A stretch of 32,000 nucleotides of DNA from positions 2,400,001-2,432,000 of the forward strand of contig NZ_CP042905.2 of assembly GCF_008000775.2 (NCBI RefSeq), in the 5' to 3' direction. Source of the stretch: Promethearchaeum syntrophicum (GTDB taxonomy: Archaea; Asgardarchaeota; Lokiarchaeia; Sigyniarchaeales; Promethearchaeaceae). A model generated the notes under the pieces. The model had not been told where the DNA came from, made no database searches, and saw only the letters and a list, made by a program, of their open reading frames with translations. Every line of letters starts with the position of its first letter. Positions within the stretch are counted from its first letter, which is position 1. This document shows positions 250 through 28,362 of the stretch, in pieces. Made by a program: the position numbers and the translations under genes.

Positions 250-2040
250 TTAAGAAGATTGATCTCTTTTTCTTCTTTGCGAAACATAAAAGCGCGCTGC
301 TTTATTTATATCATCATCATTTAAGCTTTTCTTGTTTAATCTGATTCTTAGTTGCTCAACAAATTTTCGACATAAAGTAATCGAAAGAGATTCGCCTAAA
401 TTCCTGATTTCTTCCCCGAGTTTTTCCGCTTCAATTGAAATTGGAGTAATTTCCACTTTAGGTTGCAAAATGAAATCTCCTAACGGATTTTTCTCCACTT
501 TACTTGAAACTGGCTTAATTTTTCTGATTTCCGCTTTGGTTTGAGCGCGTACACCTTTACTAATTAAGGGAGACCGTTCTAGCGTAAGTTTTTTCTCTCT
601 TGTTTGACCAGATTTGTAATTTGATAAAGAACTTTCTAAAAATTTCTCTTTCATTTCAATCCGAGAAGAATCAGAGGTTCCATTCAATCTATCTATGTTA
701 ATTGGTGCGATTTTATGTGTTTTTATTTCAAAATCTTTAATTGGCGCCCCAGGAGGCATTTCTTTAATTGAATTATCTTTCTTGGTTATCAAATCACTAA
801 AAAATGGATTTTTTTGATCCAATTTAGAAAATGTGGGGTCATTTTTTCTTTTAATCGAATCAAGGTTAGAAACGGGCAATTTTTTAATCTTTGGGACCCC
901 AATTTTATCTCCAGGTAATTGATTTACCCCTCTAAAATCTTTAAATTGGACTTTTTCAGGAGCTTTAAACATATCCTTTTCCAATTTTTTCTTATCTAAT
1001 TGTAATTGCAATTTTTCTTCTAATTCTTTAATTTTATTTTGAAATACTTCTAAATATGCAAATTCTTGATAAATTTCACAAATTCCTATCAATTCTCTTA
1101 GAAGTTCTATCCCTTCTGTATATTTTTCTTCTGCTACAAAATTATTCGCTTCTATAAGTTTTTTTCTAAATTCTTGGGGAAGGGATTCCTTTAAACCAAG
1201 TATTTTGGTAAAAATCATTGATAAATTTCCTAAAACATTTTGATCAATAAGATTTATATCAAAAATTTCTACATCCTTTAAATAAACATGCCTTTCCTTT
1301 AAAGCAGAAGAAGATACGAAATTTTGATTATCAGCATGGGTTAGTATAATCGCCCAATTACTATATTTTCCTTCTCTTCGCTTTAAATTGATGAAAAATT
1401 TGATTTTTTCATCATTAAAATTTGAACCATCAATAATAAAAAATATTACATCAGATCCTCTCGTAAAATTATTCCAAAGAGGGGAAAAATCATCTCTTGC
1501 TATGAAATCCCAGAGATCAAAGAAAATATTGCCCATCTTAATCTTGTAATAAAAAGCAAAATCCATAATTTTATGACCATGAGATTTATCTTCTTGATTC
1601 AATATATTTACAATCGTAGATTTACCAGATCCTACTGGTCCAATCATGGTTATTTTAGGATGTAGGTAATAATGAGTTTCTTTTATGAAAATCGTGAATT
1701 CCTCTTTTTCTGGGGAAATTTCTTTAATTTTCTTTGGGTCTGGGAAATTTTTAAGAAATAATTTTGAAGCTCTCTCCACTTCTTTGGCAATTAATTTAGG
1801 TCTATCAGCCATATCTGTTACAAATAAAAAGAAAACGCCATTAGCGTAAACGAAATGCGTTTGGAAATCAAGTAAAGATTTGTTAAGAATTTTTCCTTCA
1901 ACTGGATTCGTAATATAGGATAGAAGTCTCTTTTTTAGTACTATTTCCAAAGCTTCCTTATCAAAAGCTTTAGCGAAGAAATATTGGAATACAATTTCAT
2001 TATCATAATATATAAAGACTTGTCTTAACATTTTTATCAT
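250..2040 (-). CDS. Longin-like N-terminal domain fused to an Arf-family-like small GTPase domain with degenerate G3/G4 motifs, then coiled-coil and a Lys/Pro-rich tail
   Basis: P-loop GPVGSGKST is present. 'FDLWDFIARDDFSPLWNNFTRGSDVIFFIIDGSN' lines up with the Arf interswitch/switch II signature (f.vWDvGGQ..iRplW....glIfVvDs.D). 'LTHAD' sits at the NKxD position. The first ~125 aa (VFIYYDNEIVFQYFF...GVFFLFVTDMADR...ASKLFLKNF) show a beta-beta-alpha-beta-beta-beta-alpha-alpha hydrophobic pattern as in longin/SRX/sigma-adaptin folds (inference). The ATG at 2040 overlaps the upstream gene's TGA by 1 nt; the track start at 2043 is a TTG. Confidence 0.75.
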   Translation of the reverse strand: MIKMLRQVFIYYDNEIVFQYFFAKAFDKEALEIVLKKRLLSYITNPVEGKILNKSLLDFQTHFVYANGVFFLFVTDMADRPKLIAKEVERASKLFLKNFPDPKKIKEISPEKEEFTIFIKETHYYLHPKITMIGPVGSGKSTIVNILNQEDKSHGHKIMDFAFYYKIKMGNIFFDLWDFIARDDFSPLWNNFTRGSDVIFFIIDGSNFNDEKIKFFINLKRREGKYSNWAIILTHADNQNFVSSSALKERHVYLKDVEIFDINLIDQNVLGNLSMIFTKILGLKESLPQEFRKKLIEANNFVAEEKYTEGIELLRELIGICEIYQEFAYLEVFQNKIKELEEKLQLQLDKKKLEKDMFKAPEKVQFKDFRGVNQLPGDKIGVPKIKKLPVSNLDSIKRKNDPTFSKLDQKNPFFSDLITKKDNSIKEMPPGAPIKDFEIKTHKIAPINIDRLNGTSDSSRIEMKEKFLESSLSNYKSGQTREKKLTLERSPLISKGVRAQTKAEIRKIKPVSSKVEKNPLGDFILQPKVEITPISIEAEKLGEEIRNLGESLSITLCRKFVEQLRIRLNKKSLNDDDINKAARFYVSQRRKRDQSS

Positions 2041-3458
2041 CAAATATGCGTTTTTTTTAACCTCGAAAGTGTTTGGCGTACGGCATCGATCCTTATGTCT
2101 TCAGCAGATATACTTTTAAGTAAATTTTCTGTTAAAGAGTATGCATCTTCAATTAAATGCATTTCTTCGAGTAGTTCGATAAGTTGTAATGAATGATCTG
2201 TGTTTAGTTGTTCAATTTCATTTTGTACTAACGCTTTTTCTAATATTTCCATTTCTTCATCAGTAACGACTATATCTTCATCAGTAAATTCTTCTTCTTC
2301 ATCAGGAATTTCTTCTTCTTCATCAGGAATTTCTCCTTCTTCATCAGAAACTTCTCTTTCTTCATCAGAAACTTCTCTTTCTTCATCAGAAACTTCTCTT
2401 TCTTCATCAGAAACTTCTCCCTCTTCTTCAGAACCTTCTTTTTTTAATACATGAATTATTTCTTTTTTAGGTTGCTCATAACCAAAAATATATTTCTGTA
2501 TTTCATCTCTAATTAAAAATTTTAAAGCTTCAGGTATATTTAATTCGTTTTTTGAAAAGGAACGAACTAATCCTTTAAATCCTTGTAAAATTGCATAGGG
2601 TTCTGTGTATTCAGAAATTCCTTGTAAAATTTCCTTTAAAAATATAACAGAATCATCATCATTTGCTCGAATAGATGAGTTAAATAATGTAATTAGACCT
2701 TGTTCTCGCAGAAATTTACTTTTGATGCTTGATACAATACTTTCTTGAGCAAATTTTATCAATTCGTTAAAATTTTGATTTGGAATTTTTTCAATTATAT
2801 CCGAAATAAATAATATTACTGTATTTTTTAATCTGTCATCATTTCTTGCTACTCCCGATGTATAATTGATTATTATATAGCGTATCCGTTCTATTCCTTC
2901 ATCGATTTTTGGAGGATCTTCAGTTAAAAGATAGAAAGTGCTTTCTAAAATCGATAATATTTTATCTTGGCTATCAATTTGGAATGGAATGTATTTAATC
3001 AATTCTGGTTGAGGTCCACCAGTAGGCTTTTTCATTTTTTTACTTCTTTTACTTTTTCCTGATTTTTTTGAAGGTTCTTTTGAGGTACTGCTTTTAGTTT
3101 TAACCAATGTTAATTCCTGAATTTGAAATTCTTGAATTGGTTGAAAAATAATTCTGGAATCTTGTTCCCAGCAAGCAAAGATTTGATTTTCAGTTAATTT
3201 TTCTCGGATTTTTTTTGGAACTGTTATACTACCACTTTTAGTAAGCTTAATTATCTCTACTGGTTGAGTTGGAAGATTTACTTTAGCAACTGGAATTTCA
3301 TTTTCTTCTTTTTTGACTTCCGATTCTGGTTTTTCTGCTGATGCTGGTTTATCCACTGTTTCTATTTTGTTTTTATTTGGTTTTTCACTTTGTATGGTCG
3401 ATGCATTTTCTTGATTTTTTTCTTTTTCTACAAAGTTATCAGCAATTTTTTCTCCCAT
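2040..3458 (-). CDS. SpoVT/AbrB-domain protein with a helical central domain and an acidic heptad-repeat region
   Basis: 472-aa ORF. 'IKLTKSGSITVPKKIREKLTENQIFACWEQDSRIIFQPI' matches the swapped-hairpin AbrB/MazE pattern (k.G.itiPk.iR..l....gd......i.l.P). It has K/E-rich disordered N-terminal and linker segments, a ~200-aa helical region, then (x-[S/P/T]-D-E-E-x-E) repeats. It is translationally coupled to the downstream GTPase gene. Confidence 0.7.
   Translation of the reverse strand: MGEKIADNFVEKEKNQENASTIQSEKPNKNKIETVDKPASAEKPESEVKKEENEIPVAKVNLPTQPVEIIKLTKSGSITVPKKIREKLTENQIFACWEQDSRIIFQPIQEFQIQELTLVKTKSSTSKEPSKKSGKSKRSKKMKKPTGGPQPELIKYIPFQIDSQDKILSILESTFYLLTEDPPKIDEGIERIRYIIINYTSGVARNDDRLKNTVILFISDIIEKIPNQNFNELIKFAQESIVSSIKSKFLREQGLITLFNSSIRANDDDSVIFLKEILQGISEYTEPYAILQGFKGLVRSFSKNELNIPEALKFLIRDEIQKYIFGYEQPKKEIIHVLKKEGSEEEGEVSDEEREVSDEEREVSDEEREVSDEEGEIPDEEEEIPDEEEEFTDEDIVVTDEEMEILEKALVQNEIEQLNTDHSLQLIELLEEMHLIEDAYSLTENLLKSISAEDIRIDAVRQTLSRLKKTHI
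2256..2436 (-). repeat. Intragenic tandem repeat, 21-bp unit, about 8.5 copies, encoding acidic heptapeptides (EEREVSD / EEEIPDE)
   Basis: 'ttcatcag' recurs at 2256, 2277, 2298, 2319, 2340, 2361, 2382 and 2403, an exact 21-nt period. The units at 2340, 2361 and 2382 are identical (ttcatcagaaacttctctttc). Confidence 0.9.
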
Positions 3459-3522: not shown

Positions 3523-4512
3523 ATGGGCTTTAGTGAAGAGGATTTAGTAAATTATTTTTCTAAAGGAAAAAATTATGTCCCCAAAGAAGCCATGAAAAAG
3601 CTAAATCAATTGTTATTTAAAGAGTTAGGTGAATATTGTCAAGTCTGCGAAGAGGATCGAATGATTTGTGTATTATCTCCAATGTGTCCTAGGCGAATAT
3701 TACTTAAAGTTCGAATTCAATCAGGAGCTAATAAGGATGATCTTCCCAAATTTTGTTATTCCCAAGCAGTAAATAATTTGAAGAGATATATGAAAAAATT
3801 AACAACTCTCTATAAACCAGTTGATGAACTTGTTTATAATAAAGATTTCATAGATATTATGTTTCCCAAATTATATGATAAATTTGTATCATATTTTAAC
3901 ACCGATATTGATAGAATTCATCAATTAATTGAAAGCAGTAAAGTTCCTGCAGAAAAATTCGATATCAATAGTTTAGATAATCAAATATTTCGAAAGATTA
4001 TAAACCAAAATAAACTAATCCGAGAAGGAACGTTTATTTATCATATAACCGAGAATTTATTACTAATATGGTATGAAGAAGCGATATTTATAAGTGATTT
4101 TTCCGATGACTCACATCTCACCATATGTAATGCAAAATATGATGTCATTGTGAATTTGAAGATTATTCAAATTGTTTTTCAAATTTATTGTGCACAATAT
4201 GGAATCATTGGTCATTCAATTTTAAACAGCCCTAATCAAATTTCACTTGAAATGAAAGTCCCAAACTCAGAAATATCTCAAGATCTATTAGACAATAACT
4301 CTGTATTTTTTTCAGAAATAATTATATTCCTTCAAGAATTCTTTTCTGAGATTGAAATATCCCAAGATTCGGATAATTTCATGAGATTTTCTATAATATA
4401 CCAAAATGTTGAACATTTTTTAAAAAGGAATATGCTTAAACCTTTAACATATAAATCAATTGAATCCATGATAGAAAAGATTAATGGATTAAAAATCGAT
4501 AAAATAAAGTAA
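3523..4512 (+). CDS. Hypothetical protein with an N-terminal CxxC-x7-C-x5-C motif
   Basis: 329-aa ORF with no recognisable family. Contains 'CQVCEEDRMICVLSPMC'. It is divergent from the AbrB/GTPase operon and lies 37 nt upstream of the HEAT-repeat gene. Confidence 0.6.
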   Translation: MGFSEEDLVNYFSKGKNYVPKEAMKKLNQLLFKELGEYCQVCEEDRMICVLSPMCPRRILLKVRIQSGANKDDLPKFCYSQAVNNLKRYMKKLTTLYKPVDELVYNKDFIDIMFPKLYDKFVSYFNTDIDRIHQLIESSKVPAEKFDINSLDNQIFRKIINQNKLIREGTFIYHITENLLLIWYEEAIFISDFSDDSHLTICNAKYDVIVNLKIIQIVFQIYCAQYGIIGHSILNSPNQISLEMKVPNSEISQDLLDNNSVFFSEIIIFLQEFFSEIEISQDSDNFMRFSIIYQNVEHFLKRNMLKPLTYKSIESMIEKINGLKIDKIK

Positions 4513-4549: not shown

Positions 4550-5686
4550 ATGGGTCAAATAATGGAACAAATATTTGAATTTCTTGATAATCAAAAATAT
4601 AATGAGGCAATCCAATTAATTAAAGAGAACTTGGCTAAAAGAGATCCAGCATTCATCGAAGATCTGGTTCCGAGTTTGAATATTATAACAAGTAGTTCAA
4701 TCGAAGTTGCAGAATCTATTATGGCTCCCCTTTTAGGAATTTTAAACATTGATGATGATGTAATACGTTATTCAATTATACTTTCTATTAGAGATTTTGT
4801 AATAGAACATAAAGAGCTAATTTTCCCTTATGTTGAAGACTATTTAAAATATGGAACTCCAAAGAAAAGGGAAGGAATGTTATTACTTATCAAATACATT
4901 GCAGATACCGATCCAAAGGCATTAAAATCATTCTATAAATTACTCGCATACGAATTAAGTGATTCAATTGACTATATTCGTAAGAAAACCGTTGAAATTC
5001 TTCAAGCAATTGGTAAAGCGGATAGACACGAAATAGAAGCTTGCATTTTTGATTATTTAAAAGCGGAACAAGAAGAATCTGAAAAAAATATTGCTGATGA
5101 AGAATTATTGCTCGAAGCGGATAAAATTATGGCAAGTATTAAAGAATCCACCCAATTAAAACCTCAAGATAAGCTCGTAATTGATGTTGCAGATAAAATT
5201 CTTAAGAAAGGTGCAGATGGGGCTTCAAAACGTGCGGATAATGAGAAAATTACTCATGCTGCTGATACAGTCTTAAAAGATATCGTAGGTTTAAAAGCTT
5301 TGAATAAGGAAGAACTTGAAAAACGGCATTTAGAAGCTCAATCGAAAGCCATAAAAGAGAAATTATTGGAAGATAAGAAGAAGTTGGAGATTGAAAGGCT
5401 AGAATTAGAAGCTGAAAAGGAAAAAATCGATGAGGAACGTTTAAAACAAGAAAAATCTCATCTTGAAAAAGAGAAAACTTTGCTAGAGAAAAAAATGGAA
5501 TTATCTCAAGTCAAACAAGAACTTGAATTAAAAAAGATCGAAGAAGAAAAAATGAAAATAATTGAGGAAGAAGAAAGAAGAATTCAAGAAAAACTTAAAA
5601 AAAGTGAAGAATCAGAGGAATCAGAGGTATCAGAAGAAAATCATGAAGATACTGCGTCTAATAATAATCAAAACCATTTTGAATAA
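4550..5686 (+). CDS. HEAT/ARM-like alpha-solenoid N-terminal domain plus a long K/E-rich coiled coil and an acidic Ser/Glu tail
   Basis: 378-aa ORF. The first ~170 aa have repeated helix-turn-helix periodicity with HEAT-like segments (DDDVIRYSIILSIRDFV, KREGMLLLIKYIADTDP, YIRKKTVEILQAIGKAD). Residues ~250-350 are heptad-rich (LEIERLELEAEKEKIDEERLKQEK...). The tail reads SEESEESEVSEE. Confidence 0.6.
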   Translation: MGQIMEQIFEFLDNQKYNEAIQLIKENLAKRDPAFIEDLVPSLNIITSSSIEVAESIMAPLLGILNIDDDVIRYSIILSIRDFVIEHKELIFPYVEDYLKYGTPKKREGMLLLIKYIADTDPKALKSFYKLLAYELSDSIDYIRKKTVEILQAIGKADRHEIEACIFDYLKAEQEESEKNIADEELLLEADKIMASIKESTQLKPQDKLVIDVADKILKKGADGASKRADNEKITHAADTVLKDIVGLKALNKEELEKRHLEAQSKAIKEKLLEDKKKLEIERLELEAEKEKIDEERLKQEKSHLEKEKTLLEKKMELSQVKQELELKKIEEEKMKIIEEEERRIQEKLKKSEESEESEVSEENHEDTASNNNQNHFE

Positions 5687-5700
5687 AGGGGAAGAATAAA

Positions 5701-6999
5701 TTGAAAATTTCAAAAGGATGTATTTTAGCAGCAGGTAAAGGAACTAGATTATTACCCTTAACTGAAACGAAACCAAAACCACTCATTCCAATTGCAGGAA
5801 AACCATTACTTCAACATTCAATAGAAATGTTTCGGGAAAACAATATTACAAAAATCCTTTTAATAGTTGGTCATTACAAGGAAAAAATTGAAGAATTTTT
5901 TGGAAATGGCGCTGATTTTGGAGTCGAAATCTCGTATATAGAACAAAAGGAATTTTTGGGAACTGCTCATGCTACCAATCTTGCAAAAAATTTTGCTGAT
6001 CAAGATCCCTTCCTTCTTTTCTACGGAGATCAGTATATGGATTCACGCATTTTTGAAAAAATACTTGATGAGTTTTCTACAAATACATATGATGGGTTAA
6101 TTTCTGCTAAATATATGGAAGATCCGGAAAAATGGGGTATCTTAAAATCAAATAAAGAAGGATTTTTAGAAAACCTTATTGAAAAACCACCTGATAATCG
6201 ATATGGAAATCTAGCAAATGCAGGGGTATACATATTTAACCAAGATATCTTTGAGGGAATTGCTAACACAGAAAAATCTCTAAGAGGAGAATATGAATTA
6301 ACAGACTCGATTCAGTATTTAGTAGACAGAAATAAAAAAATAAAGATCGTAGATATTTCCAATTATTATTGGAATGGTGTTGGATATCCTTGGCAAATTC
6401 TTGAAACGAATCATCATATTATTTCAGAAATGAATACAGATTTAATTCATAGCAGTGTGGTAGAAGAAGGATCAGTGACTATCAAAGGAATTGTCGAGAT
6501 AGGAGAAAACACATTATTAAAAGCGGGAACTTATATCGAAGGTCCCTTGATTATCGGAAAAAACTGTGTTATAGGTCCAAATGCATATCTTCGTCCTTAT
6601 TCAACCATTGGTGATAATTGCAAAATCGGCAATTCTTCAGAGATTAAGGCATCTATAATAATGAATCATACAGCAGTGCCCCATCTTTCCTATGTTGGGG
6701 ATTCTATTATTGGAGAACATGTCAATTTAGGATGCGGTACAGTTACTGCAAATGTTCGCCTTGATAAGAAAAATATCTCCATGGAACTTAAAGGTAACTT
6801 AATTGAAACCCATAAAAGGAAATTAGGCGCATTTATTGGAGATTACGCAAGTATCGGAATAAATGTTAATATAATGCCAGGAAAATGCATAGGGTCTTAT
6901 TGTGAAATAGGCAGTAATACAATAATATCGAAAAACGTTCCCGCAAATTCATTGCTATTTACAAAACCAAAACAACAACAAATCCTAAGAAAAAAATAA
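5701..6999 (+). CDS. Bifunctional sugar-1-phosphate nucleotidyltransferase / hexapeptide-repeat acetyltransferase (archaeal GlmU-like)
   Basis: The N-terminus 'ILAAGKGTRLLPLTETKPKPLIPIAGKPLL' is the nucleotidyltransferase signature. The C-terminal ~170 aa are left-handed beta-helix hexapeptide repeats (IGKNCVIGPNAYL..IGDNCKIGNSSEI...IGEHVNLGCGT). TTG start preceded by GGGGA. Confidence 0.85.
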   Translation: MKISKGCILAAGKGTRLLPLTETKPKPLIPIAGKPLLQHSIEMFRENNITKILLIVGHYKEKIEEFFGNGADFGVEISYIEQKEFLGTAHATNLAKNFADQDPFLLFYGDQYMDSRIFEKILDEFSTNTYDGLISAKYMEDPEKWGILKSNKEGFLENLIEKPPDNRYGNLANAGVYIFNQDIFEGIANTEKSLRGEYELTDSIQYLVDRNKKIKIVDISNYYWNGVGYPWQILETNHHIISEMNTDLIHSSVVEEGSVTIKGIVEIGENTLLKAGTYIEGPLIIGKNCVIGPNAYLRPYSTIGDNCKIGNSSEIKASIIMNHTAVPHLSYVGDSIIGEHVNLGCGTVTANVRLDKKNISMELKGNLIETHKRKLGAFIGDYASIGINVNIMPGKCIGSYCEIGSNTIISKNVPANSLLFTKPKQQQILRKK

Positions 7000-7190
7000 A
7001 AATCAATAATTCAACACCAATTGGTTAATTTTTAGATATATAAATAGGAGGGGAATATCGGAGTGAAAGATTTCCATCATTGTTCTTAAGATTTAAATGG
7101 AAAAGAGATGAATTTCAATCTCAAAATAGTCACATTCTTTTTATTTACTTCTTTCCGCCTAAGAATCACTGAATAATTTTATAAATTAAG

Positions 7191-7997
7191 GTGAAAACGG
7201 TGACAATTAAATTACCCAAAATAGGTTTAGGAACTTGGCAATTAAAGAATAAAAAATGTCAAGATTCTGTATTGAAAGCTCTGGAAATTGGCTATCGGCT
7301 AGTTGACACAGCTCAAATGTATGGAAATGAAGAACAAGTCGGAAATGCACTAAGTGAAGGGACCGTGCCCCGCAATGAGATATTTCTTGCAACAAAGCTT
7401 TTCGTGAATGATTTATCTCCAAAAAAAGTAGCTAAAAAGACTCTGGAAAGCCTAAGTCGATTGAAAACCGAGTATCTTGATCTTCTCTATATTCATTGGC
7501 CTGCGGGAAAATACAATCCGAAGAAAACACTCTCAGCATTTGAAACATTGGTTGATGAAGGAAAGATTAAACATATCGGAATTTCAAATTTTACACCTAA
7601 ATTGATTGATGAAGCATTGCAGGTCATGAAAAAACCTATCTTTGCAAACCAAGTGGAAAACCACCCGCTGCTGAAGCAAGTTCCACTTCGCCAATATTTA
7701 AAAGAAAAAGAAATTAAGTTGGTTTCCTATTCTCCGCTTGCAAGGGGAAATGTAAGAGGTGTCCCGGAGCTGGAAGAAATCGCAAAGAATCACAACACAA
7801 ATCCATTTCAAGTGTCGATAGCCTGGGAAATCTCAAAAGGGGCGATCCCAATCCCAAAAGCTAGCAGTGAAGGGCATCTTCGGAACAATTTTGATGCCCA
7901 ATTTCTAACCCTCGATGCAGAAGAGATACAAAAAGTGGATTCTATCCAAACGGAAACCCGTTTTCTAAACCCCCCTTTCATTCGGCCCAAATGGTAA
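7191..7997 (+). CDS. Aldo/keto reductase (2,5-diketo-D-gluconate reductase-like)
   Basis: 'LGTWQL', 'GYRLVDTAQMYGNEEQVG', 'LDLLYIHWP', 'IGISNF' and 'VENHPLL' are classical AKR motifs. The start is uncertain: GTG at 7191, or in-frame GTG at 7200, which has a GGTGA Shine-Dalgarno at 7189-7193. Confidence 0.85.
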   Translation: MKTVTIKLPKIGLGTWQLKNKKCQDSVLKALEIGYRLVDTAQMYGNEEQVGNALSEGTVPRNEIFLATKLFVNDLSPKKVAKKTLESLSRLKTEYLDLLYIHWPAGKYNPKKTLSAFETLVDEGKIKHIGISNFTPKLIDEALQVMKKPIFANQVENHPLLKQVPLRQYLKEKEIKLVSYSPLARGNVRGVPELEEIAKNHNTNPFQVSIAWEISKGAIPIPKASSEGHLRNNFDAQFLTLDAEEIQKVDSIQTETRFLNPPFIRPKW

Positions 7998-8040
7998 AGT
8001 ATAGAGCGTAAATATTTTGGTATAATTCTCTTCAACCATC

Positions 8041-8047
8041 TTTTTTT
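8041..8047 (+). terminator. Oligo-T run downstream of the AKR gene (archaeal-type terminator candidate)
   Basis: T7 tract 44 nt after the stop codon at 7995-7997. Confidence 0.3.
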
Positions 8048-8332
8048 ATTTTGAAGAAATAAATTCTTTCTGAATAAAGGACTTGTCATTGCTCTGAGAA
8101 GAGCTTCGTAGTTTATTTCAAAACTAACTTCAGTCCCAAGCTTAAAATCGTTGTTATTTGTATCGATAATTAAATAATCACTTGAACCTCCGCGAAATTA
8201 CCGCGCTTTTTTTCTAGTATACAAATTTTAATTTTGGGTTTTGTCAATATTACGTCACATCTCCTTCCCTAATTAGATTTTTACAAATTGTGCGATATTA
8301 GGAAATTTCTAATTAAATTAAATAAAAAACAG

Positions 8333-8341
8333 AAAAAAAAA
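8333..8341 (-). terminator. Oligo-T (T9 on the minus strand) terminator candidate for the r-protein operon
   Basis: A9 on the plus strand, about 31 nt downstream of the S3Ae stop at 8372. Confidence 0.4.
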
Positions 8342-8371
8342 TTTAAACAAAAAGATTTAGAGTTTCTCAAT

Positions 8372-9142
8372 TTATTCTTTTTTCTCTGCAACAACTTCGG
8401 ACGGCTCTGAATCTTCAGGGCTGCCTTTTTCTTTTTTCTTCTTCAATTTCTTAGCTTTAATCGATTTACCATGTTCTCCTAAATCTAAAGAAACTTCATC
8501 AAAAACTAAATCTTCGGTAATAAAATCATCTTTAATGTTTTCTGGAACGTTAATTACTTTCACTTTACGGATTTTGCACTCTCTAAGTGGATAAATCGTT
8601 TTTGCAATTTTGGTAATGTTTGATGCAAATCTTCCACTAATGACACCTTGGATAAACTTCTCATGTGTCATGTTCTTTGCAAATTCAGTTAATACTTGAA
8701 AAATGATCTTTCTCATTGACTTCTGTTGAGATCGTTTAGCTCGTCGGCGAGTTACTAAGAAGGTACTAACACGATAAGTAACATTATCTGCAGTGGTAAA
8801 ATTGAAAATTCCGTCTACACGAGTAGCGCCTCTATGAATCAAAGACCGAATATAGTCTCTGGTTAATTCATGACCCCAGAAAATTGTATTACATCTTTTA
8901 CCAATGATTTTGGTTATCTTAAATTGAAGCATAATGCTTGCGTCATTATAACTTTTAGTGAAATCATAAAGTGAGATGGACATTATTCTTCCGACTAAAT
9001 TGTCTGGATTGCCCGATGGAATTTGTGCAATAAATTCTTCCTTAAATGTTTTTGGAGCGTATACATCATACCATTCTTTCATTTTCCATGAATCTATGGT
9101 CTTACCTCTTCCACGAGTTTTGCGTTTTGCTTTTTGTGACAT
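8372..9142 (-). CDS. rps3ae: 30S ribosomal protein S3Ae (eS1)
   Basis: 'GRGKTIDSWKMKEWYDVYAPKTF...' and the overall basic 256-aa protein match the archaeal S3Ae/eukaryotic S3a family. GGTGA Shine-Dalgarno (rc of 9148-9152) lies upstream of the ATG. The gene is 12 nt downstream of rps15. Confidence 0.9.
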   Translation of the reverse strand: MSQKAKRKTRGRGKTIDSWKMKEWYDVYAPKTFKEEFIAQIPSGNPDNLVGRIMSISLYDFTKSYNDASIMLQFKITKIIGKRCNTIFWGHELTRDYIRSLIHRGATRVDGIFNFTTADNVTYRVSTFLVTRRRAKRSQQKSMRKIIFQVLTEFAKNMTHEKFIQGVISGRFASNITKIAKTIYPLRECKIRKVKVINVPENIKDDFITEDLVFDEVSLDLGEHGKSIKAKKLKKKKEKGSPEDSEPSEVVAEKKE

Positions 9143-9154
9143 TTTGTTTCACCG

Positions 9155-9610
9155 TTATCGTAAGAAAATCTTAATTTTCTCTGGGTCATATTTGAAATCT
9201 GGTTCAAGAACGCCCTTCTTTCTATAGTATTTAACCAATCTTCTTATTTTTGCTTCTACCCTTCCTAATCCCTTCTTTGCTTCTAAATCTTTCTTATTTT
9301 CTTCCAAATGTCTTCTAACCTTAACCGCTTGGCGACTTAGGAAAGTTATATCTTCCGGGAGTTTCGGTGATAAATCATTTTCTTTTAGTATGGTAGAGAT
9401 AGTTTTGCCAGTAATAATTTTTACGAGCGGTGTACCAAACCCATCACGGAGTTGGAGCCCGATACTTGACATAGACTCACCTTTTTTGGCGAGTTCTATA
9501 ACTTTGGCCTCTACCTCTTCACTCGTATGTGGGTACCAGGGAAGGATTTCAAGTTTTGCCGGACGCTTTGATCCGGACTTACCTTTTTTTCTGCTATGCA
9601 TTCTGGCCAT
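9155..9610 (-). CDS. rps15: 30S ribosomal protein S15 (uS15; S13e-type)
   Basis: 'MARMHSRKKGKSGSKRP' is the conserved archaeal S15/S13e N-terminus, and the C-terminal 'RRLVKYYRKKGVLEPDFKYDP' matches the family. I prefer the ATG at 9610 over the track's GTG at 9619. Confidence 0.9.
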   Translation of the reverse strand: MARMHSRKKGKSGSKRPAKLEILPWYPHTSEEVEAKVIELAKKGESMSSIGLQLRDGFGTPLVKIITGKTISTILKENDLSPKLPEDITFLSRQAVKVRRHLEENKKDLEAKKGLGRVEAKIRRLVKYYRKKGVLEPDFKYDPEKIKIFLR

Positions 9611-9619
9611 TTTATTCAC

Positions 9620-10536: not shown

Positions 10537-12342
10537 CTATAATTGACAATCTTCATCATCAGGGTCTAGTAATTGGTTCAAAATATTTGGGCCATCTCTG
10601 AGACCCCAAGGATCGGTAGAATATAGTAGGGGTAAAACTGGTGTGCCATCACTCCACAAACCCATACCGATCATATTTTCTCCACCACCTTGAAAGTAGG
10701 TTTTAGCATCATTCGCAACCACGGTTCCACTATTAGCATCCGCTACTAGAAAACTAGCCATGGCATCGATTCGTCGGTGATATCCGAATACCGAAAGCGT
10801 ATCAATTAAAGGATCATTTGGAAGGTAATGGGTTGCGACTAATCGGGGAAATCCGTATCGATCAGATCGAATCAAGAGGAAGGCGACCTGATCGGGATTC
10901 AGTTCGATTGAATTATCACGAGTAAAGAATCTTTCATGTTGGGCCATCCCATCGCAAGGGCTTAAAACTGTATCATCCTCATAACCTATAACATTCACCA
11001 TCGTATAATTAGGCAATATCGAGAGGTTTACATTGACAGAAGGCCATGTGGCACTAGTAGTTGGAGCTTCTAAATCAAAAATAAGCTGTTGTGAAGCCCA
11101 TCCTTCTGAAATAACTTGAGATCCGATAAAAAGAGTCATTCCTCCACCAACACTATGTCCTATAATTAAAATACGGCTAGTGTCTATCGTATAATCCGTT
11201 CCTAGCGTTTCATTAAGCTCGGACGAGGAGATAAGACTATTATTTCCTATGAGAGTATTTACTGCAGAAAACATCCCCGTCCAAGTCATATTATACTTAA
11301 TATAACTCGAAAAAGAATATGCTTCTGTATCATTTTCAACTTCAACTTTTTCTAGAATTTTAGTATAATTAAAACTCCGTGAGTATTGTACAAAAATAAC
11401 TGCCATTCCACGGGAAGCAAGAGCACGTAAGGAATAATCATATTCAACTACATCCTGTCCGCTATTTCCATGGCAATATAGTGCAATTGGGATATTTTGG
11501 GTAGAAGAAAGGGTTGCTACACTTAAGCGGGGAAGATAATAGTATATATACCATGAATTATTTTCATTGCGAGGGGTCACGAATGCAGTGATATTTTCAG
11601 GTAGATCATTTTCTACTTGAAATGTGTCTACCTCAAATGGACGATCTTGGCTACCATAACCAGAAGAAGGTTGAAGTTCAGAAGTTGGCGATAGCCCCAT
11701 TAAGGGAATCAAACTAGGAAAGATGATGATAAACCCGAGTATTACCCATACGAGATTTTTAGCCATTTTGATATAGTTTAGAGTAGGTTTATAGATGGTT
11801 AATTTAAGGGTTTCAGTTTTTTTTAATATTCTTTTAAAAAGAGGATACAGAATTATTTGAACTGTATGAAAATCGCTAAACGAAATCAAGCTTGTGCCAA
11901 TTATTATCCCGATGGAAAGAATAAAAGGTATTGAAACAAAAGCACCGTGAAAATACAGTTGGTTAATTATCAGGTAAATTATTAGTTCATAAATTAAATA
12001 TCCTATTCCAACTCCCCCCAATATTCGCAAGATATCCCAGGTGTACAATTTTTTTGCTTGTTTCTCCAGAAGATCTTTTTTGAAAATTCGATATTGATAA
12101 AAAATCAATCCAAAAATGACAATGAGGAGTAATAAAAATGTCAACCAGAATACTAACGGTGTATTAACTTGAATAACTCTTGCAAATTCCAGTGAAGAAC
12201 GCGCTTTATTAAATTCTACTCCAGTTCCCGATAGAAAACCAATCAAAAAGGGGACAAGACCTATCAGTAAGCCTAGAAGCTCGGCACTTACTAATAAAAT
12301 TTTAAGGATTTTTGAACGCTTGTATTCGATCATGTAAATCAA
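10537..12342 (-). CDS. Membrane-anchored alpha/beta-fold serine hydrolase (multi-TM N-terminal domain plus a predicted extracytoplasmic catalytic domain)
   Basis: 601 aa. About 6 hydrophobic helices lie in the first ~215 aa. The nucleophile elbow is 'IIGHSVGGG' (GxSxG), with candidate Asp in 'GYEDDTV' and His in 'VATHYLPND'. There are nine N-x-S/T sequons in the C-terminal domain (NIT, NNS, NYT, NDT, NMT, NNS, NET, NLS, NYT). Confidence 0.75.
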   Translation of the reverse strand: MIYMIEYKRSKILKILLVSAELLGLLIGLVPFLIGFLSGTGVEFNKARSSLEFARVIQVNTPLVFWLTFLLLLIVIFGLIFYQYRIFKKDLLEKQAKKLYTWDILRILGGVGIGYLIYELIIYLIINQLYFHGAFVSIPFILSIGIIIGTSLISFSDFHTVQIILYPLFKRILKKTETLKLTIYKPTLNYIKMAKNLVWVILGFIIIFPSLIPLMGLSPTSELQPSSGYGSQDRPFEVDTFQVENDLPENITAFVTPRNENNSWYIYYYLPRLSVATLSSTQNIPIALYCHGNSGQDVVEYDYSLRALASRGMAVIFVQYSRSFNYTKILEKVEVENDTEAYSFSSYIKYNMTWTGMFSAVNTLIGNNSLISSSELNETLGTDYTIDTSRILIIGHSVGGGMTLFIGSQVISEGWASQQLIFDLEAPTTSATWPSVNVNLSILPNYTMVNVIGYEDDTVLSPCDGMAQHERFFTRDNSIELNPDQVAFLLIRSDRYGFPRLVATHYLPNDPLIDTLSVFGYHRRIDAMASFLVADANSGTVVANDAKTYFQGGGENMIGMGLWSDGTPVLPLLYSTDPWGLRDGPNILNQLLDPDDEDCQL

Positions 12343-18529: not shown

Positions 18530-19246
18530 TTATTTCTTGGCTCCCCGAGTTATTATAAGTAAAAATGTAAAGAATATCACTCCAAATAACACAAGGAAAA
18601 CCCATATTAATGCTGGATCAGGCGCCCAAATGAATGCAAGGTATGTAAATGGGAGCAAGAATACAACAGTAAGAATAACCAAAGCAGCTAGAGTAACCTT
18701 GGCATCTTTCAAATCTAAAACTATCGGGACTATTATAGCAATGGTTAATACAGTAACCAGAATCTTATAGGTTAAAATAATCCCCAATAAAGGAGCATCT
18801 GCTGCTAAAGGATCCAAAAGTGGAATATAAAAGAAATTCCAAATAGCGTCTGCTCCTTCATTCATGTTATTATTCACCCCTTGTAATGAAGGTAATACCG
18901 CTGAAAGGATCAAATTTATTACAATTCCAATAATCAACATCAATGCAACATCATCTGCATCTTTGAATCCTTTTTCTTTATCTTTTATGAAAATATCACG
19001 TATTACGGCAAGTAACCAAAAGATTGCTAGTACCATCATCGATCCGGTTAATCCAAATTCATATAATTCTTTCTTTGTCACTGCATACCAAAGATAATTA
19101 GTTGGTAAAAGAGCAGCGATATACGCGATTGAACCATATTTATCTCCTCGTTTAAAAAGATCATAAAATAAGAACACCAAGTAGATAAGAGTGAAGGATA
19201 TCAACAAAATAAGGTCGGCTAAGTCTATGGGTAACTGATTTAACAT
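18530..19246 (-). CDS. Polytopic (about 7 TM) membrane protein of unknown function
   Basis: 238-aa ORF with seven hydrophobic stretches. No catalytic or transport motif recognised. Confidence 0.6.
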   Translation of the reverse strand: MLNQLPIDLADLILLISFTLIYLVFLFYDLFKRGDKYGSIAYIAALLPTNYLWYAVTKKELYEFGLTGSMMVLAIFWLLAVIRDIFIKDKEKGFKDADDVALMLIIGIVINLILSAVLPSLQGVNNNMNEGADAIWNFFYIPLLDPLAADAPLLGIILTYKILVTVLTIAIIVPIVLDLKDAKVTLAALVILTVVFLLPFTYLAFIWAPDPALIWVFLVLFGVIFFTFLLIITRGAKK

Positions 19247-19390: not shown

Positions 19391-20005
19391 ATGGATGTAA
19401 AACGAGAAATTATTGGATTAAGAATTTTCACGGGATCTTTTCTTGCTGAAGTTGAAAAAATCTTTGGAACTGCAACTATAAAAGCGATTTTAAACAGATT
19501 AGGTCAAAAACCCGCTGAAATCGTAGCAGAGCATATGTTAGAAAAATATGAAAAAACTGTGAAAAAACCATTTGAAAATATTGGAGCTGTTTATACAATT
19601 TTTGAAAATACCATAACTCAATTATACGATTCAGAAATTATTTCTCAAGAAGATTTTGAAGATAAATTTATCATTCGGATAAAAAATGTTTGTGCTTTTA
19701 GACATTCTATAAGGGTTCGCGATGATCTATCCTATGGAGGAACTCTCTGTGAATTCACGATTGGATATTTTGAAACAGCATTAAAAATGCTAACAGGACT
19801 CAAAGTTGAATATCAATACTTGAAAAAAGAATCAACCGATGATCATTGTGTTATCGATTTAGTATTTTGGAAGAAAAAAAAACCAGAAGAGATCTTAGAG
19901 ATTAAAGAACCCTCAGAATCAGAAGAACTTTCCAAGATTGAAGATTCTACTGAAAGTAAAGACCTAAACGAAGCAAATAAAATAAATAATAAAAATGAGA
20001 GTTAA
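19391..20005 (+). CDS. V4R (4-vinyl reductase-like) domain protein with an acidic C-terminal tail
   Basis: 'GGTLCEFTIGYFETALKMLTGLKVEYQYLKKESTDDHCVIDLVF' resembles the V4R C-terminal pattern (C.f..Gy..G.....g..v.v.E..C...G...C.f.v). The functional call is tentative. Confidence 0.5.
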   Translation: MDVKREIIGLRIFTGSFLAEVEKIFGTATIKAILNRLGQKPAEIVAEHMLEKYEKTVKKPFENIGAVYTIFENTITQLYDSEIISQEDFEDKFIIRIKNVCAFRHSIRVRDDLSYGGTLCEFTIGYFETALKMLTGLKVEYQYLKKESTDDHCVIDLVFWKKKKPEEILEIKEPSESEELSKIEDSTESKDLNEANKINNKNES

Positions 20006-20060: not shown

Positions 20061-21011
20061 GTGAATCAGATGTTACCCAGCACTTTTTACGATTTCCCAA
20101 TTGGAGATTTAGATAAATCATTTCGTTTTGCTATTATTGGAATTCCATGGGATGGAAATTCTACACATGTTATTGGAAATACCAGAAATGCTCCCAGTGA
20201 ACTCAGAACTTTAACAACATTTTTAGGTAGAGCGACCGAAAATGGAAATAACATCATGGATTTTAACGCAGTGGATTTTGGGGATGTTTCAGTCTATCCA
20301 TCATTACCCGATTTGACACGTGACAATATTTCCATAATGATAAAAGAATTAATCCCATGGAACAAACCTTATCCCATTCCCATTATGATTGGAGGGGATC
20401 ATTATTGTTCATATCCAGTTATCAAAGCATTAAATGAGAAACGCTCAGAATTAAAGCAAGAGAAGTTCGGCGTTTTAATTTTTGATGCTCATTTGGATTA
20501 TTATGATAAATGGCTAGATGTAGAAGAACATTTTCACTGTACCGTATCCAAGCGAATATCAGAAATACCAAATATTTCAGCAGAAAATATGGCAATTGTG
20601 GGTGTTAGGGATTTGGATACAATAGAAATTGAAGAAGCAAAGAAAGACAATCTATTTTTTATCCCATCATATAAATTCTCTCCAAAAGGCGCTTCCAGTG
20701 GAATAGAGGAGCAAGTAGTAACGATTATAAATCATTTTCGTAAACAAAAAATATCACATCTTTATATTTCAATTGATATCGATAGCATTGATGGAGCTTT
20801 AGCACCGGGCACCCCTTACGCAATACCTGGAGGGTTTAAATATCGTGAGCTTTGGTATATGCTTCAAAAAATTATTGAACAGTTTGAAATTGTAGGTTTA
20901 GATGTAGTAGAAGTCGCTCCCGATCTAGATACATCTTCCAAAATTACTCAAATTACTGCAATTAAATTAATTACGGAATTAATGGGATTTATAACTCAAA
21001 AAATTAAGTGA
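20061..21011 (+). CDS. speB: Agmatinase (ureohydrolase/arginase family)
   Basis: Mn-ligand motifs 'GGDHYCSYP', 'FDAHLDYYD' and 'SIDIDSIDGALAPGT', plus 'GLDVVEVAP'. The track start is a GTG; an in-frame ATG lies at 20070. Confidence 0.85.
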   Translation: MNQMLPSTFYDFPIGDLDKSFRFAIIGIPWDGNSTHVIGNTRNAPSELRTLTTFLGRATENGNNIMDFNAVDFGDVSVYPSLPDLTRDNISIMIKELIPWNKPYPIPIMIGGDHYCSYPVIKALNEKRSELKQEKFGVLIFDAHLDYYDKWLDVEEHFHCTVSKRISEIPNISAENMAIVGVRDLDTIEIEEAKKDNLFFIPSYKFSPKGASSGIEEQVVTIINHFRKQKISHLYISIDIDSIDGALAPGTPYAIPGGFKYRELWYMLQKIIEQFEIVGLDVVEVAPDLDTSSKITQITAIKLITELMGFITQKIK

Positions 21012-21021
21012 GTCTAAAAAA

Positions 21022-21984
21022 ATGAAAGAAATCGAAGACACAAAGAATTATCGCCCTATTGAGCAAATTGATGTTTCTGCAAGCCAAGATATTGTAGAAT
21101 TAATGGATAAATTTAATAATATGGGATTTAATGCTAAAAGATTAGCACAAGCTTGTCAGATATATGAAAATATGTGTAAAGAAAAAGAATGCGTTAAATT
21201 TTTCTCCTTATCGGGAGCACTAGTTCCTGTTGGATTACAGAAAGTAATTTATGATTTTATTAAGGAAGGTTTTATTGATGTTCTAGTCACTACTGGTGCA
21301 AATTTAACTCATGATGTTGGAGAAGCTTTAGGAGACCATCATTTACAAGGATTTTCTTCAGATGATATAAAAATTGATTCACATCTACATGAAGAACACC
21401 TTAATCGAATTTTTGATGTATTTATGCCCAATAAAATCTATGAAAACATGGAAGATTGGATTCATTCCTTTAAAATTGATCATAAAGCTTCCGTAAAGGA
21501 AACTCTATGGGCATTGGGGGCAAAATTACCTAAAGAGAGTCATTCGATTCTTCAAATTTGTTCAGAGAAAAAAATCCCGATTTATTGCCCCGCTTTTACT
21601 GATTCAGGTTTGGGTATGCAATTATCTTTCGCCTATCCTAGTATGAACCTTAATCAATTTGAAGATTTGCAAGAAATGATAAATAAAGCATGGGATACAA
21701 AAGTTGCGGGAGTGTTTATTGCAGGAGGGGGAGTCCCTAAGAATTTTATTTTTCAAGCGCTCCAGTTTTCACCAAATTCAGGAAAATATGTTGTACAAGT
21801 TACCACCGATGCTCAAGTCTCTGCGGGTGGTTTATCGTCTGCATCGTTAAGTGAAGCAATATCATGGGGAAAAGTAGCAGCTAATGGTAAAAGTGAGACT
21901 GTGCAAGTTCATATGGATTGTACTATTGCACTTCCTATAATACTAGCTTTTTTAAAACAAAAAAAACAACTAGGAATAATTTAG
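21022..21984 (+). CDS. dys: Deoxyhypusine synthase
   Basis: 'LSGALVPVGL', 'LVTTGANLTHD', 'FTDSGLG' and 'SLSEAISWGK' (the catalytic Lys region) fit the DHS family. Length is 320 aa. Confidence 0.9.
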   Translation: MKEIEDTKNYRPIEQIDVSASQDIVELMDKFNNMGFNAKRLAQACQIYENMCKEKECVKFFSLSGALVPVGLQKVIYDFIKEGFIDVLVTTGANLTHDVGEALGDHHLQGFSSDDIKIDSHLHEEHLNRIFDVFMPNKIYENMEDWIHSFKIDHKASVKETLWALGAKLPKESHSILQICSEKKIPIYCPAFTDSGLGMQLSFAYPSMNLNQFEDLQEMINKAWDTKVAGVFIAGGGVPKNFIFQALQFSPNSGKYVVQVTTDAQVSAGGLSSASLSEAISWGKVAANGKSETVQVHMDCTIALPIILAFLKQKKQLGII

Positions 21985-24305: not shown

Positions 24306-24327
24306 TCATGATTTTTCAAGTTAATCT
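24306..24327. repeat. IS terminal inverted repeat (left)
   Basis: Perfect 22-nt match to the reverse complement of 26055-26076. Confidence 0.9.
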
Positions 24328-27531: not shown

Positions 27532-28362
27532 TTACATGAAAACTAATGTAATCACATAATAAATGGTTACTGCAATAATATCAGATGCATTATGAGCTAT
27601 CATGGGTCCAAGTAAGCTTTTACTTCTTTCTAACAACACTCCATAAAATAATCCCAGTCCCATTGAAAAACAAATTTGCATTAAATTGAAATAAGTAATT
27701 TGAAACGGAAATAAAGTAAATCCAATATGTGCTGCAGAAAATATTACAGCTGCAAAGAAATTACTAAAAGTAATCTCAGTTTTTCCGATTTTAAACTTCC
27801 CTGACCAATGTCGAGAAAGTATTCCCAAAACCATAGCTCTAAAAACAATTTCTTCAGATAAACCAGGCATTGTTCCAGAAAAGCTTATAGTCCTTAAGTA
27901 ATCATTCAAATTTCTTTCATGTTGAATTATTGGTGGCCATCCTGAGATTATTTGAGTAATTAATGTACCTATTGATAAGGCAACAATGTAAATTATAATA
28001 AACTCTAAAACAGTTCTTAATGCCCATCTCCAATTTTTAAAATTAAGACCAAATTCTTTCAGAGATTTTTTCCAAATCGGGAGAGATATCACGAGTAAAG
28101 CAAATGCCAATTGCAAAATATGATGAGTAAAATCCCATGCTGAAGTACCAAATTCAAAAAGAATATCTGATATAAAAAAAGCTAGTTTAGGGATAAAAAT
28201 CCCTAAAAAAAGAACTATTATACCATCCAAAATTTTTATAGCTATGCTTATTTCCACTTTTTCTATGTTTTCACTCTCAACACCATTTCTTTCTTGACTA
28301 GATGTCTGCAAAATAGAACTATTGATATCCTTTAAGTGATAATCATTCGCATTTGTATCCAT
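27532..28362 (-). CDS. CPBP-family intramembrane glutamic endopeptidase (CAAX protease/Abi family)
   Basis: Motifs 'SEEIVFRAMV' (EExxxR), 'FSAAHIG' (FxxxH) and 'AHNASD' (HxxxD) sit in a polytopic membrane protein. Confidence 0.8.
   Translation of the reverse strand: MDTNANDYHLKDINSSILQTSSQERNGVESENIEKVEISIAIKILDGIIVLFLGIFIPKLAFFISDILFEFGTSAWDFTHHILQLAFALLVISLPIWKKSLKEFGLNFKNWRWALRTVLEFIIIYIVALSIGTLITQIISGWPPIIQHERNLNDYLRTISFSGTMPGLSEEIVFRAMVLGILSRHWSGKFKIGKTEITFSNFFAAVIFSAAHIGFTLFPFQITYFNLMQICFSMGLGLFYGVLLERSKSLLGPMIAHNASDIIAVTIYYVITLVFM

Follow-up and report, generated by a model that had tools for sequence, protein, structure and literature searches.

A Lokiarchaeal clade of longin-fused Arf-like proteins without canonical switch residues, encoded in a conserved four-gene neighbourhood

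Introduction

Asgard archaea encode dozens of small GTPases along with longin and roadblock domains, which are central to the debate on the origin of eukaryotic membrane trafficking. To our knowledge, almost none of these GTPases has been assigned a partner or a function. Here we ask what becomes of such a protein when its G domain retains the phosphate-binding loop and loses the residues that sense and hydrolyse GTP. The protein in question is encoded in a 32,000-nucleotide (nt) stretch of the genome of Promethearchaeum syntrophicum MK-D1, the first Lokiarchaeon in culture (contig NZ_CP042905.2, positions 2,400,001 to 2,432,000; the window hereafter), where a single minus-strand open reading frame (ORF) occupies 250..2043 and specifies 597 amino acids (aa) when counted from TTG 2043. 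We number residues by this 597-aa ORF; NCBI numbers are lower by 4. The encoded protein matches WP_162306730.1/QEE16885 of MK-D1 at 100% identity, is annotated in databases as 'ADP-ribosylation factor-like protein' or 'Rab family GTPase', and runs from an N-terminal longin domain through an Arf-like G domain and helical hairpins to a disordered linker of about 170 residues and a C-terminal helical bundle. We find that it belongs to a Lokiarchaeal clade in which the switch residues are uniformly gone, the P-loop is nearly always kept and three uncharacterised genes usually lie alongside. On balance, we favour the reading that it is a nucleotide-holding, non-switching pseudoGTPase, derived from the Lokiarchaeal longin-fused ArfL GTPases, that scaffolds a four-gene module.

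Longin domains fused to Lokiarchaeal 'Arf-like' GTPases have been known since 2016, with five reported in Lokiarchaeum (Klinger et al. 2016, as cited by Dey 2016). A survey of all 74 small GTPases of MK-D1 counted 26 with a fused roadblock or longin domain, and the GTPase genes were generally not in operons with their regulators (Tran et al. 2024). In that work WP_162306730.1 appears as 'LGX', its motifs left without comment (Suppl. Fig. 6b), and the legend describes the longin paralogues as lacking the MglA-type switch-I Arg. Vargova et al. 2024 list the protein as 'ArfL' by BLAST, outside their tree (Table S3), and treat ArfL as an Asgard-only group that is not directly related to eukaryotic Arfs; another published study puts 'Arfl' near Rag/Rup2, and published trees place ArfL outside the Arf+ArfR clade. 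A full-text literature search for Asgard or archaeal pseudoGTPases found nothing relevant. The protein and its architecture are thus already known, and the degenerate clade, its stepwise history and the four-gene module appear to be undescribed.

Results

An Arf-like G domain without switch and catalytic residues

The G domain (aa 128-283; 1195..1662, on the minus strand like all other features of this gene) is of the Arf-like, ArfL type according to Pfam, Foldseek and the comparison of a clade profile with the PDB. Pfam Arf (PF00025) matches with 35.3 bits (E=1e-8; gathering cutoff 22.3), followed by Roc with 31.7 bits and Ras with just 13.9. A phmmer search of the PDB gave Arl8A/B, Arf1, Arf6, Arl3 and similar proteins as best matches. 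An AlphaFold2 model made from 28 family sequences reached a pLDDT of about 90 over aa 4-360 and 534-596, and Foldseek aligned its G domain with Arl1, Arl3, Arf6, Arl8 and Arf1 (E 4e-8 to 5e-7; TM score 0.6-0.75, target-normalised). The top 48 of these matches were Arf/Arl proteins, the Asgard GerdArfR1 structure standing at rank 46. The higher TM scores for GTP-form than for GDP-form Arf structures were not used, because the target lengths differ. When profiles of the degenerate clade and of its canonical sister clade, both described below, were compared with the PDB, the top 60 matches were in each case all Arf/Arl/ArfR, with best E-values of 4e-14 and 8e-23, respectively. The assignment is well above chance, and the protein has the Ras-superfamily small GTPase fold (TRAFAC P-loop), with a Walker A GxxxxGK[ST] and the Walker B Asp, D179. 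A Rag-like class, as suggested by Tran et al. for such proteins, was rejected, since sequence and profile searches put only Arf/Arl on top. Membership of Rag/Gtr itself was likewise discarded: the C-terminus is helical or disordered and has no roadblock, Pfam gives no Gtr1_RagA match and the HKxD motif is absent.

Within this fold, the nucleotide-binding motifs have fared very differently. The G1 P-loop GPVGSGKST (aa 135-143; 1615..1641) is canonical, in agreement with an earlier note made from the DNA sequence, and all four strings quoted in that note are present in the protein. Switch I (HGHKIMDFAFYY, aa 155-166; 1546..1581) is remodelled: D161 takes the place of the G2 Thr, and one residue next to it is deleted. 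The spacing of G2 position and G3 Asp is Arf-like, at 18 residues as compared to 19 in ARF1 and the canonical sisters. The G3 and switch II segment (LWDFIARDDFSPLW, aa 177-190; 1474..1515) keeps Walker-B Asp179 intact and reads DFIAR, with A182 and R183 replacing Gly and Gln. Hence the three residues on which a functional switch GTPase depends, the G2 Thr, the Gly of DxxG and the catalytic Gln, are D161, A182 and R183 here. The G4 position (aa 235-238; 1330..1341) has THAD for NKxD and falls outside the [NT]KxD pattern, and at the G5 position FDINLID (1243..1263) the canonical Ala of SA/CAT, present in 94% of the sister clade, is lost.

This motif correspondence was identical in four independent alignments. 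The phmmer alignment to Arl8A paired LWDIGGQPRFRSMW with LWDFIARDDFSPLW; a MAFFT alignment of 142 G domains and human ARF1 paired FANKQDL with ILTHADN and canonical PT(I) with MD(F); matching the clade profile to yeast Arf3p led to the same pairing, as did the structure-based alignment of Tran et al. 2024 (Suppl. Fig. 6b). No alternative placement of canonical G2, G3 or G4 residues was found anywhere in the protein sequence. The losses that the earlier note had proposed for the switch-I Thr, the G3 Gly-Gln (to DFIAR) and NKxD (to THAD) are borne out by these alignments.

A further proposal of that note, that the signature W-D-x7-[RS]-P-L-W is specific to Arf, was over-interpreted, as the canonical sisters read LWDFAGQEQFSYLW at this place and published trees exclude ArfL; what holds is that Arf/Arl proteins are the closest solved relatives by profile. 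Together with the Asgard ArfR proteins (HodArfR1, GerdArfR1), they are the nearest in both profile and fold, and Arf/Arl share the xPLW switch-II motif with the window protein. Unlike Arf and ArfR, the window protein has a longin domain in place of the N-terminal amphipathic helix and lacks WDxGGQ, the switch-I Thr and NKxD. The G domain is Arf-type in appearance. With neither an amphipathic helix nor GGQ, and with ArfL excluded by the published phylogeny, a place in the Arf family proper is not supported.

One degenerate clade and a stepwise loss of motifs

A word-indexed search returned 33 relatives, every one of them from a Lokiarchaeal genome or metagenome. A family profile search of 1.84 billion cluster representatives, with a threshold of E<=1e-30, gave 140 representatives, and the alignment analysed here comprises 142 sequences covering the G domain (longin-G domains). 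A canonical group of about 85 representatives reads GFSGVGKTT, IPTITGDI, LWDFAGQEQFSYLW, NKQD and SMIA. The G3 Gly is missing in 57 of the 142 domains. These 57 retain GxxxxGK[ST] in all but three cases (54/57) and NKxD in 27; the members without NKxD read [TS]Hxx, for example THAD, THSD, THQD, THKN or SHSK. The residues that replace Gly and Gln vary freely (IAR, QLK, VFP, ILE and others), so that it is the loss that is conserved and not 'IAR'. Accordingly, the homologue survey that the earlier note had called for gave a divided answer on the IAR and THAD substitutions: G2/G3 loss is clade-wide, whereas IAR is not conserved and THAD is secondary.

We built a neighbour-joining tree from Poisson distances with the G2, G3 and G4 columns masked and 100 bootstraps. 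The degenerate group forms one clade of 56 sequences from about 50 species (97/100). Nested within it, the 30 sequences of the [TS]H group make up a subclade (80/100), and most of the NKxD-retaining members form a separate clade of 21 sequences (83/100). Switch-I Thr and G3 Gly-Gln are absent from all orthologues in the 56-sequence clade. Canonical motifs in close homologues, which the earlier note had regarded as a sign of lineage-specific decay, are thus not found for G2 and G3. Because the masked-column tree groups both the degenerate clade and the nested [TS]H subclade, the losses read as stepwise. By this phylogeny, the clade ancestor had already lost its switch-I Thr, G3 Gly-Gln and G5 Ala, in each case once, and the loss of NKxD came later, in the subclade that includes MK-D1 and L. 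ossiferum.

The degenerate clade lies, well supported, inside the longin-fused ArfL proteins (LG/LGX), which combine a longin domain beginning with MLRQVF, an Arf-like G domain and C-terminal regions. For comparison we used the canonical members P0032, P0033 and MK-D1 WP_147664160.1. The canonical proteins, exemplified by WP_147664160.1, and the window protein are alike in the MLRQVF longin, the G-domain fold and the helices after the G domain. In contrast, the canonical longin-GTPases keep GFSGVGKTT, IPTITGD, DFAGQ, NKQD and SMIA, whereas the degenerate clade has lost G2, G3, G5 and, in part, G4. Moreover, the degenerate clade has switch motifs of its own and a three-gene neighbourhood that is found nowhere else in the comparison.

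Conservation points to a new function

We next consider which columns the clade has kept, gained and lost, as calculated from 48 non-redundant members. Retained are K130 (100%), G135 (100%), G140 (98%), K141 (94%), Thr/Ser at 142, D179 (96%), W190 (98%) and D198 (100%). Lost are P160, T161, A181, G182, Q183 and A265. Newly fixed in the clade, and not in its sister clade, are H128, P136, I159, M160, [N/D]161, F162 (100%), A163, D176, D184 and S187, as well as L284-K285-x-x-L288-P289-x-x-F292 in the linker after the G domain. The switch regions thus carry clade-specific motifs, IM[ND]FA in switch I and D[DN]FSPLWNN in switch II. Judged from these columns, the pattern is one of neofunctionalisation under purifying selection and not of erosion.

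The P-loop Lys is also gone in four members of the clade, P0074, P0093, P0094 and L039 (at 6998-8569), whose P-loops read GPSPFDRQK, GPSKSGRTT, GPKDGGRTT and GPAYAGRT. These sequences suggest further decay toward nucleotide-free forms in some lineages.

A longin domain and conserved C-terminal regions

The predicted fold of the N-terminal domain (aa 5-127; 1663..2031; pLDDT 85-93) is that of a longin domain. In the AlphaFold2 model its topology is beta-beta-alpha-beta-beta-beta-alpha-alpha, as in longin and not as in roadblock domains (alpha-beta-beta-alpha-beta-beta-beta); DSSP assigned E6-13, E16-22, H29-45, E53-57, E60-67, E70-76, H82-99 and H111-126. The first strand carries the family-invariant MLRQ and is followed by a conserved FLFVTDxADRP motif. 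Profile matches to the PDB were weak, with E-values of 0.07 for AP-3 sigma, 0.18-0.64 for AP-2 sigma and 1.1 for the VAMP7 longin; seven of the 12 matches were longin proteins aligned at the same residue positions. An hhalign comparison with AP2S1 gave P=0.0019 over residues 21-98 of both proteins. Tran et al. 2024 also class the N-terminal domain as longin ('L'). Together with their 'LGX' label, the modelled topology upholds the permanent fusion to a longin-fold domain that the earlier note had described. Where Arf proteins have an amphipathic N-terminal helix, the window protein starts with a 123-residue longin domain, followed by helices.

Downstream of the G domain, the clade-specific linker motif LGLKxxLPxxF (aa 282-292) precedes helical hairpins and a long helix, as seen in the AlphaFold2 model (aa 290-358; 970..1176). 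The subsequent linker (aa 359-533; 445..969) is disordered, with a pLDDT below 50, and contains conserved short motifs, namely KAPEKxxF (P362 and F367 near-invariant), NPFF (nt 799-810) and LTLERSPL. The protein ends in a three-helix domain (aa 534-597; 253..444) that is conserved across the clade (LGESLSxxLCxKF...AAxLYV).

Three partner genes accompany the degenerate clade

In MK-D1, the GTPase gene follows a co-oriented gene for a 472-aa protein (2040..3458, minus strand) almost without a gap; the two genes overlap by 1 nt or are 8 nt apart, according to which of two start codons is taken (see below). Two further genes lie upstream on the opposite strand, encoding proteins of 329 aa (3523..4512, plus strand, divergent) and 378 aa (4550..5686, plus strand). 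The four genes recur in L. ossiferum in an identical arrangement, with a GTPase 42% identical to that of MK-D1 and partner products 46%, 52% and 60% identical to the MK-D1 proteins. In three distant metagenome-assembled genomes (MAGs), in which the GTPase is only about 30% identical, homologues of the 329-aa protein (E 1e-28 to 1e-42) and of the 378-aa protein (1e-20 to 1e-34) are adjacent, and the 472-aa homologue is adjacent in one of the three.

To quantify this association, we scanned one genome per GTDB species, which yielded 63 loci, 50 of the degenerate clade and 13 of canonical or other longin-GTPases, and counted partner genes within 7 kb. At the degenerate-clade loci, the 329-aa family was present in 44/50, the 378-aa family in 43/50, the 472-aa family in 39/50 and all three in 35/50; the order 472(+) 378(-) 329(-) LG(+) recurred at 33 loci. 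Six degenerate-clade loci lacked the 329-aa family, three of them interrupted by contig ends. None of the partner genes occurred at any of the 13 canonical-type or other longin-GTPase loci. Because the NK-retaining clade has the same neighbours, the synteny is older than the loss of NKxD.

The partners offer few clues to their roles. The 472-aa protein combines a weak AbrB/SpoVT-like hairpin (NCBIfam E 0.0044), a Lys-rich linker and a helical domain, and neither Pfam nor a PDB profile search gave a match. The 329-aa protein represents an orphan family with a cysteine cluster and a C-terminal alpha/beta half. Its conserved residues C39, C42, C49, C55 and C78 may bind metal. Its AlphaFold2 model is confident (pTM 0.82), and may represent a new fold: the best Foldseek match in the PDB (E 0.016 at TM 0.22) was not significant, and a PDB profile search gave no match. 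The 378-aa protein starts with HEAT repeats that span about 180 aa, after which comes a long, charged coiled coil. Its homologues match HEAT_2, HEAT_EZ and Adaptin_N in Pfam, and its profile matched alphaRep designs and CAND1 best in the PDB, with AP-4 epsilon and AP-3 delta also found. We rejected adaptin homology for this protein, since best matches to designed alphaRep proteins and CAND1 point to generic HEAT similarity.

Several minor features of the module and its surroundings were also seen. The 472-aa gene contains, at 2252-2443, a 21-nt tandem repeat of 9.1 copies with 88% match, encoding an acidic heptad array (EEREVSD/EEEEIPD). This insert is missing in L. ossiferum and distant homologues, and two loci (L009, L012) have other acidic inserts there. 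Complete modules occur in MAGs labelled by their submitters as Hodarchaeota (L017, L031), Thorarchaeota (L030) and Odinarchaeota (L053); either these are mislabelled or misbinned, or the module extends past Lokiarchaeia. In two distant MAGs (L002:14347-15450 and L005:16557-17548) the module stands a few genes upstream of PIG-L deacetylase and actin-family genes, and a GARS (purD) gene is close to it in L002, L004 and L005. A gene whose product is an NTP-transferase with hexapeptide repeats (GlmU/eIF2B-epsilon-like LbH) borders the module in MK-D1 (5701-6999, plus strand) and L. ossiferum (L001:3214-4539), and was not seen beside it in the distant MAGs examined.

The start of the GTPase gene

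The gene ends with its stop codon at 250-252. Counted upstream, an in-frame ATG at 2040-2038 overlaps the TGA stop of the 472-aa gene (2042-2040) by 1 nt, and a second ATG lies at 2031; the minus strand reads ...CAT ATT TGA TGA TAA AAA TGT TAA GAC AA... in this region. GenBank versions have used both, with ATG 2031 giving the 593-aa form (NCBI) and ATG 2040 an older 596-aa form. Because nearly all homologues begin with MLRQVF, the true start is more likely ATG 2031 or ATG 2040 than TTG 2043, and the homologues favour ATG 2031.

Discussion

What could a G domain of this kind still do? In canonical GTPases, the side chain of the switch-I Thr and the backbone NH of the DxxG Gly contact the gamma-phosphate and drive the universal switch, which Vetter and Wittinghofer are said to have described as a loaded spring, while the Gln orients the attacking water. 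As Thr, Gly and Gln are all missing here, neither canonical coupling of conformation to GTP/GDP nor hydrolysis by the canonical route is to be expected. A guanine nucleotide should still be bound, at least ancestrally, because the P-loop, the Mg-binding Ser/Thr and the Walker-B Asp are retained, and NKxD in half of the clade. The expectation of the earlier note, a nucleotide-binding but hydrolysis-impaired protein, is a sound inference from motif conservation. As far as sequence goes, the protein fits the definition of a pseudoGTPase, its catalytic G motifs being lost and its P-loop conserved.

The favoured reading, a non-switching pseudoGTPase scaffold, builds on a motif history, a selection pattern and a synteny that the sequences show, and infers from them nucleotide binding, a lack of hydrolysis and physical interactions. 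A single ancestral event removed the switch-I Thr and the G3 Gly, both of them gamma-phosphate sensors, along with the catalytic Gln, and strong purifying selection preserved the P-loop Lys, its Ser/Thr and the Mg-linked Walker-B Asp. Either GTP or GDP would remain in the G domain and serve as a structural cofactor, with loaded-spring switching and canonical hydrolysis presumably impossible. Without switching, it would therefore present a fixed, remodelled switch surface, which could serve as an interaction face. The longin domain, a fold for dimerisation and a platform for GTPases, might then act with this fixed face, the motif-bearing linker and the C-terminal helices to scaffold a complex, whose partners, to judge from synteny, would be the Cys-cluster, HEAT/coiled-coil and AbrB-like neighbour proteins.

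Several points weigh against this proposal. Nucleotide binding is deduced from the conservation of the P-loop, and the interactions with neighbours from synteny. The base-recognition motif is eroded in the TH/SH subclade (THAD, THKN, SHSK), which makes guanine specificity or tight binding uncertain. In the lineages of P0074, P0093, P0094 and L039, which have lost the P-loop Lys, nucleotide binding appears to be dispensable. Finally, the partner proteins have no recognisable function.

Two other readings deserve attention first, and we consider each of them unlikely. The protein could be a working GTPase with unconventional catalysis, residues being supplied by R7/Q8, the Arg-Gln pair in the MLRQ motif of the longin domain, within one chain or between the subunits of a dimer, or by a conserved neighbour protein. 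Longin-domain GTPase-activating proteins with arginine fingers are established in eukaryotes (FLCN, NPRL2, SMCR8), L-R-Q at the longin N-terminus is invariant in both clades, the switch regions have gained conserved acidic or polar residues ([ND]161, D176, D184), and both P-loop and Walker-B Asp are retained. However, MLRQ shows the same invariance in the canonical sister clade, whose members have a Gln of their own, and is thus not a compensating gain; moreover, both gamma-phosphate sensors are gone and the G3 +2 to +4 positions vary freely. Alternative catalysis of the type seen in HAS-GTPases or Rap was rejected, because those non-canonical GTPases keep the G2 Thr and the G3 Gly.

With a similarly small probability, the protein is a pseudoGTPase that has no nucleotide at all and acts purely as a scaffold, as CENP-M and the pG domains of p190RhoGAP do, keeping its P-loop for folding or for a non-nucleotide ligand. 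The degradation of G2, G3, G4 and G5 in the MK-D1 subclade and the four relatives devoid of the P-loop Lys fit this proposal. They have to be set against the persistence of GxxxxGK[ST] in 54/57 and of the Walker-B Asp in 96% across about 30% sequence identity, and against the NKxD found in half of the clade, a motif with no known role besides guanine binding.

We think it rather improbable that base specificity has changed in the TH/SH subclade, such that the MK-D1 protein binds ATP or another nucleotide and not GTP. Throughout this monophyletic subclade the G4 Asn and Lys are replaced, the Lys by a conserved His, and the G4 Asp itself is variable (THKN, SHSK). Yet the window protein (THAD) and most of the subclade retain this Asp, and no new conserved base-binding motif is evident. 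The idea of a decaying gene, a relic paralogue drifting to a pseudogene in the MK-D1 lineage, could appeal to the loss of several catalytic motifs in one protein, but is refuted by the conservation data and has a negligible chance of being right, given the intact frame in about 50 species, the conserved new motifs, linker motifs, C-terminal domain and synteny, and losses that map to the base of an old clade.

Returning to the pseudoGTPase scaffold, comparison with better-known proteins is instructive. Rnd/RhoH, RGK proteins and the SEPT6-group septins, which have no switch-I Thr, are nucleotide-binding pseudoGTPases or constitutively loaded GTPases that usually keep the G3 Gly and NKxD. The window protein resembles them in the kept P-loop, in the substituted catalytic and switch residues and in the predicted role as a non-cycling scaffold or adaptor. 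It differs in belonging to another lineage, which would make the likeness convergent, in being archaeal and longin-fused, and in having lost both gamma-phosphate sensors. The combination of a longin-fold domain with an Arf-like G domain recalls SRalpha SRX-SRbeta, Rag-Ragulator, MglA-MglB and the AP sigma/mu longins with Arf1. For the AP complexes, the longin domain has its weak similarity to sigma-adaptins, and the neighbouring HEAT protein its matches of the Adaptin_N/AP-4 epsilon/AP-3 delta type. Unlike in these assemblies, the two domains form one polypeptide in the window protein, and the similarity is at the level of fold and repeat only.

A bolder idea, to which we assign little probability, is that the four genes encode a Lokiarchaea-specific, eukaryote-like complex of the adaptor or coat type around a permanently 'on-like' Arf-like pseudoGTPase with a sigma-adaptin-like longin. 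The longin domain might pair with itself or with a canonical LGX paralogue, comparable to the active and pseudo-active G proteins of Rag heterodimers, and the HEAT/coiled-coil (adaptin-trunk-like), Cys-cluster and AbrB-like proteins might be recruited via the switch face and the linker motifs, including NPFF. If true, this would be a prokaryotic case of GTPase-to-scaffold conversion within a proto-trafficking assembly.

As far as the searchable literature shows, the clade would be an undescribed lineage of archaeal pseudoGTPases, with G2/G3 lost first and G4 later. We know of the conversion of a GTPase into a scaffold only from eukaryotes; if the pseudoGTPase scaffold is the right reading of these sequences, it should also have occurred in archaeal relatives of eukaryotes. 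The conserved neighbourhood names concrete candidate partners, which places this module among the few Asgard small-GTPase systems that could be reconstituted from genomic predictions, and two cultured hosts, MK-D1 and L. ossiferum, carry it.

Other features of the window

The remaining genes of the window are of ordinary housekeeping type, and its G+C content is 25-35%. Ribosomal protein genes S3Ae and S15/S13 lie at 8372-9619. Three sizeable ORFs have no Pfam match: 10537-12342 (minus strand, 601 aa), 18530-19246 (minus strand, 238 aa) and 19391-20005 (plus strand, 204 aa). The 557-aa ORF at 24316-25989 (minus strand) has a weak match to a MULE transposase domain (E=2e-4, under the Pfam cutoff) and may be a mobile-element remnant. 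In this genome rich in small GTPases, the window also encodes an Rce1-like protein of the type II CAAX prenyl endopeptidase family (27532-28362, minus strand; Pfam E=1e-12); the family is widespread in prokaryotes, so this gene may be unrelated to GTPase processing. Finally, at 20061-21984 (plus strand) a gene of the arginase family (agmatinase-like) adjoins a deoxyhypusine synthase gene, and the two could plausibly serve polyamine supply and hypusination together.

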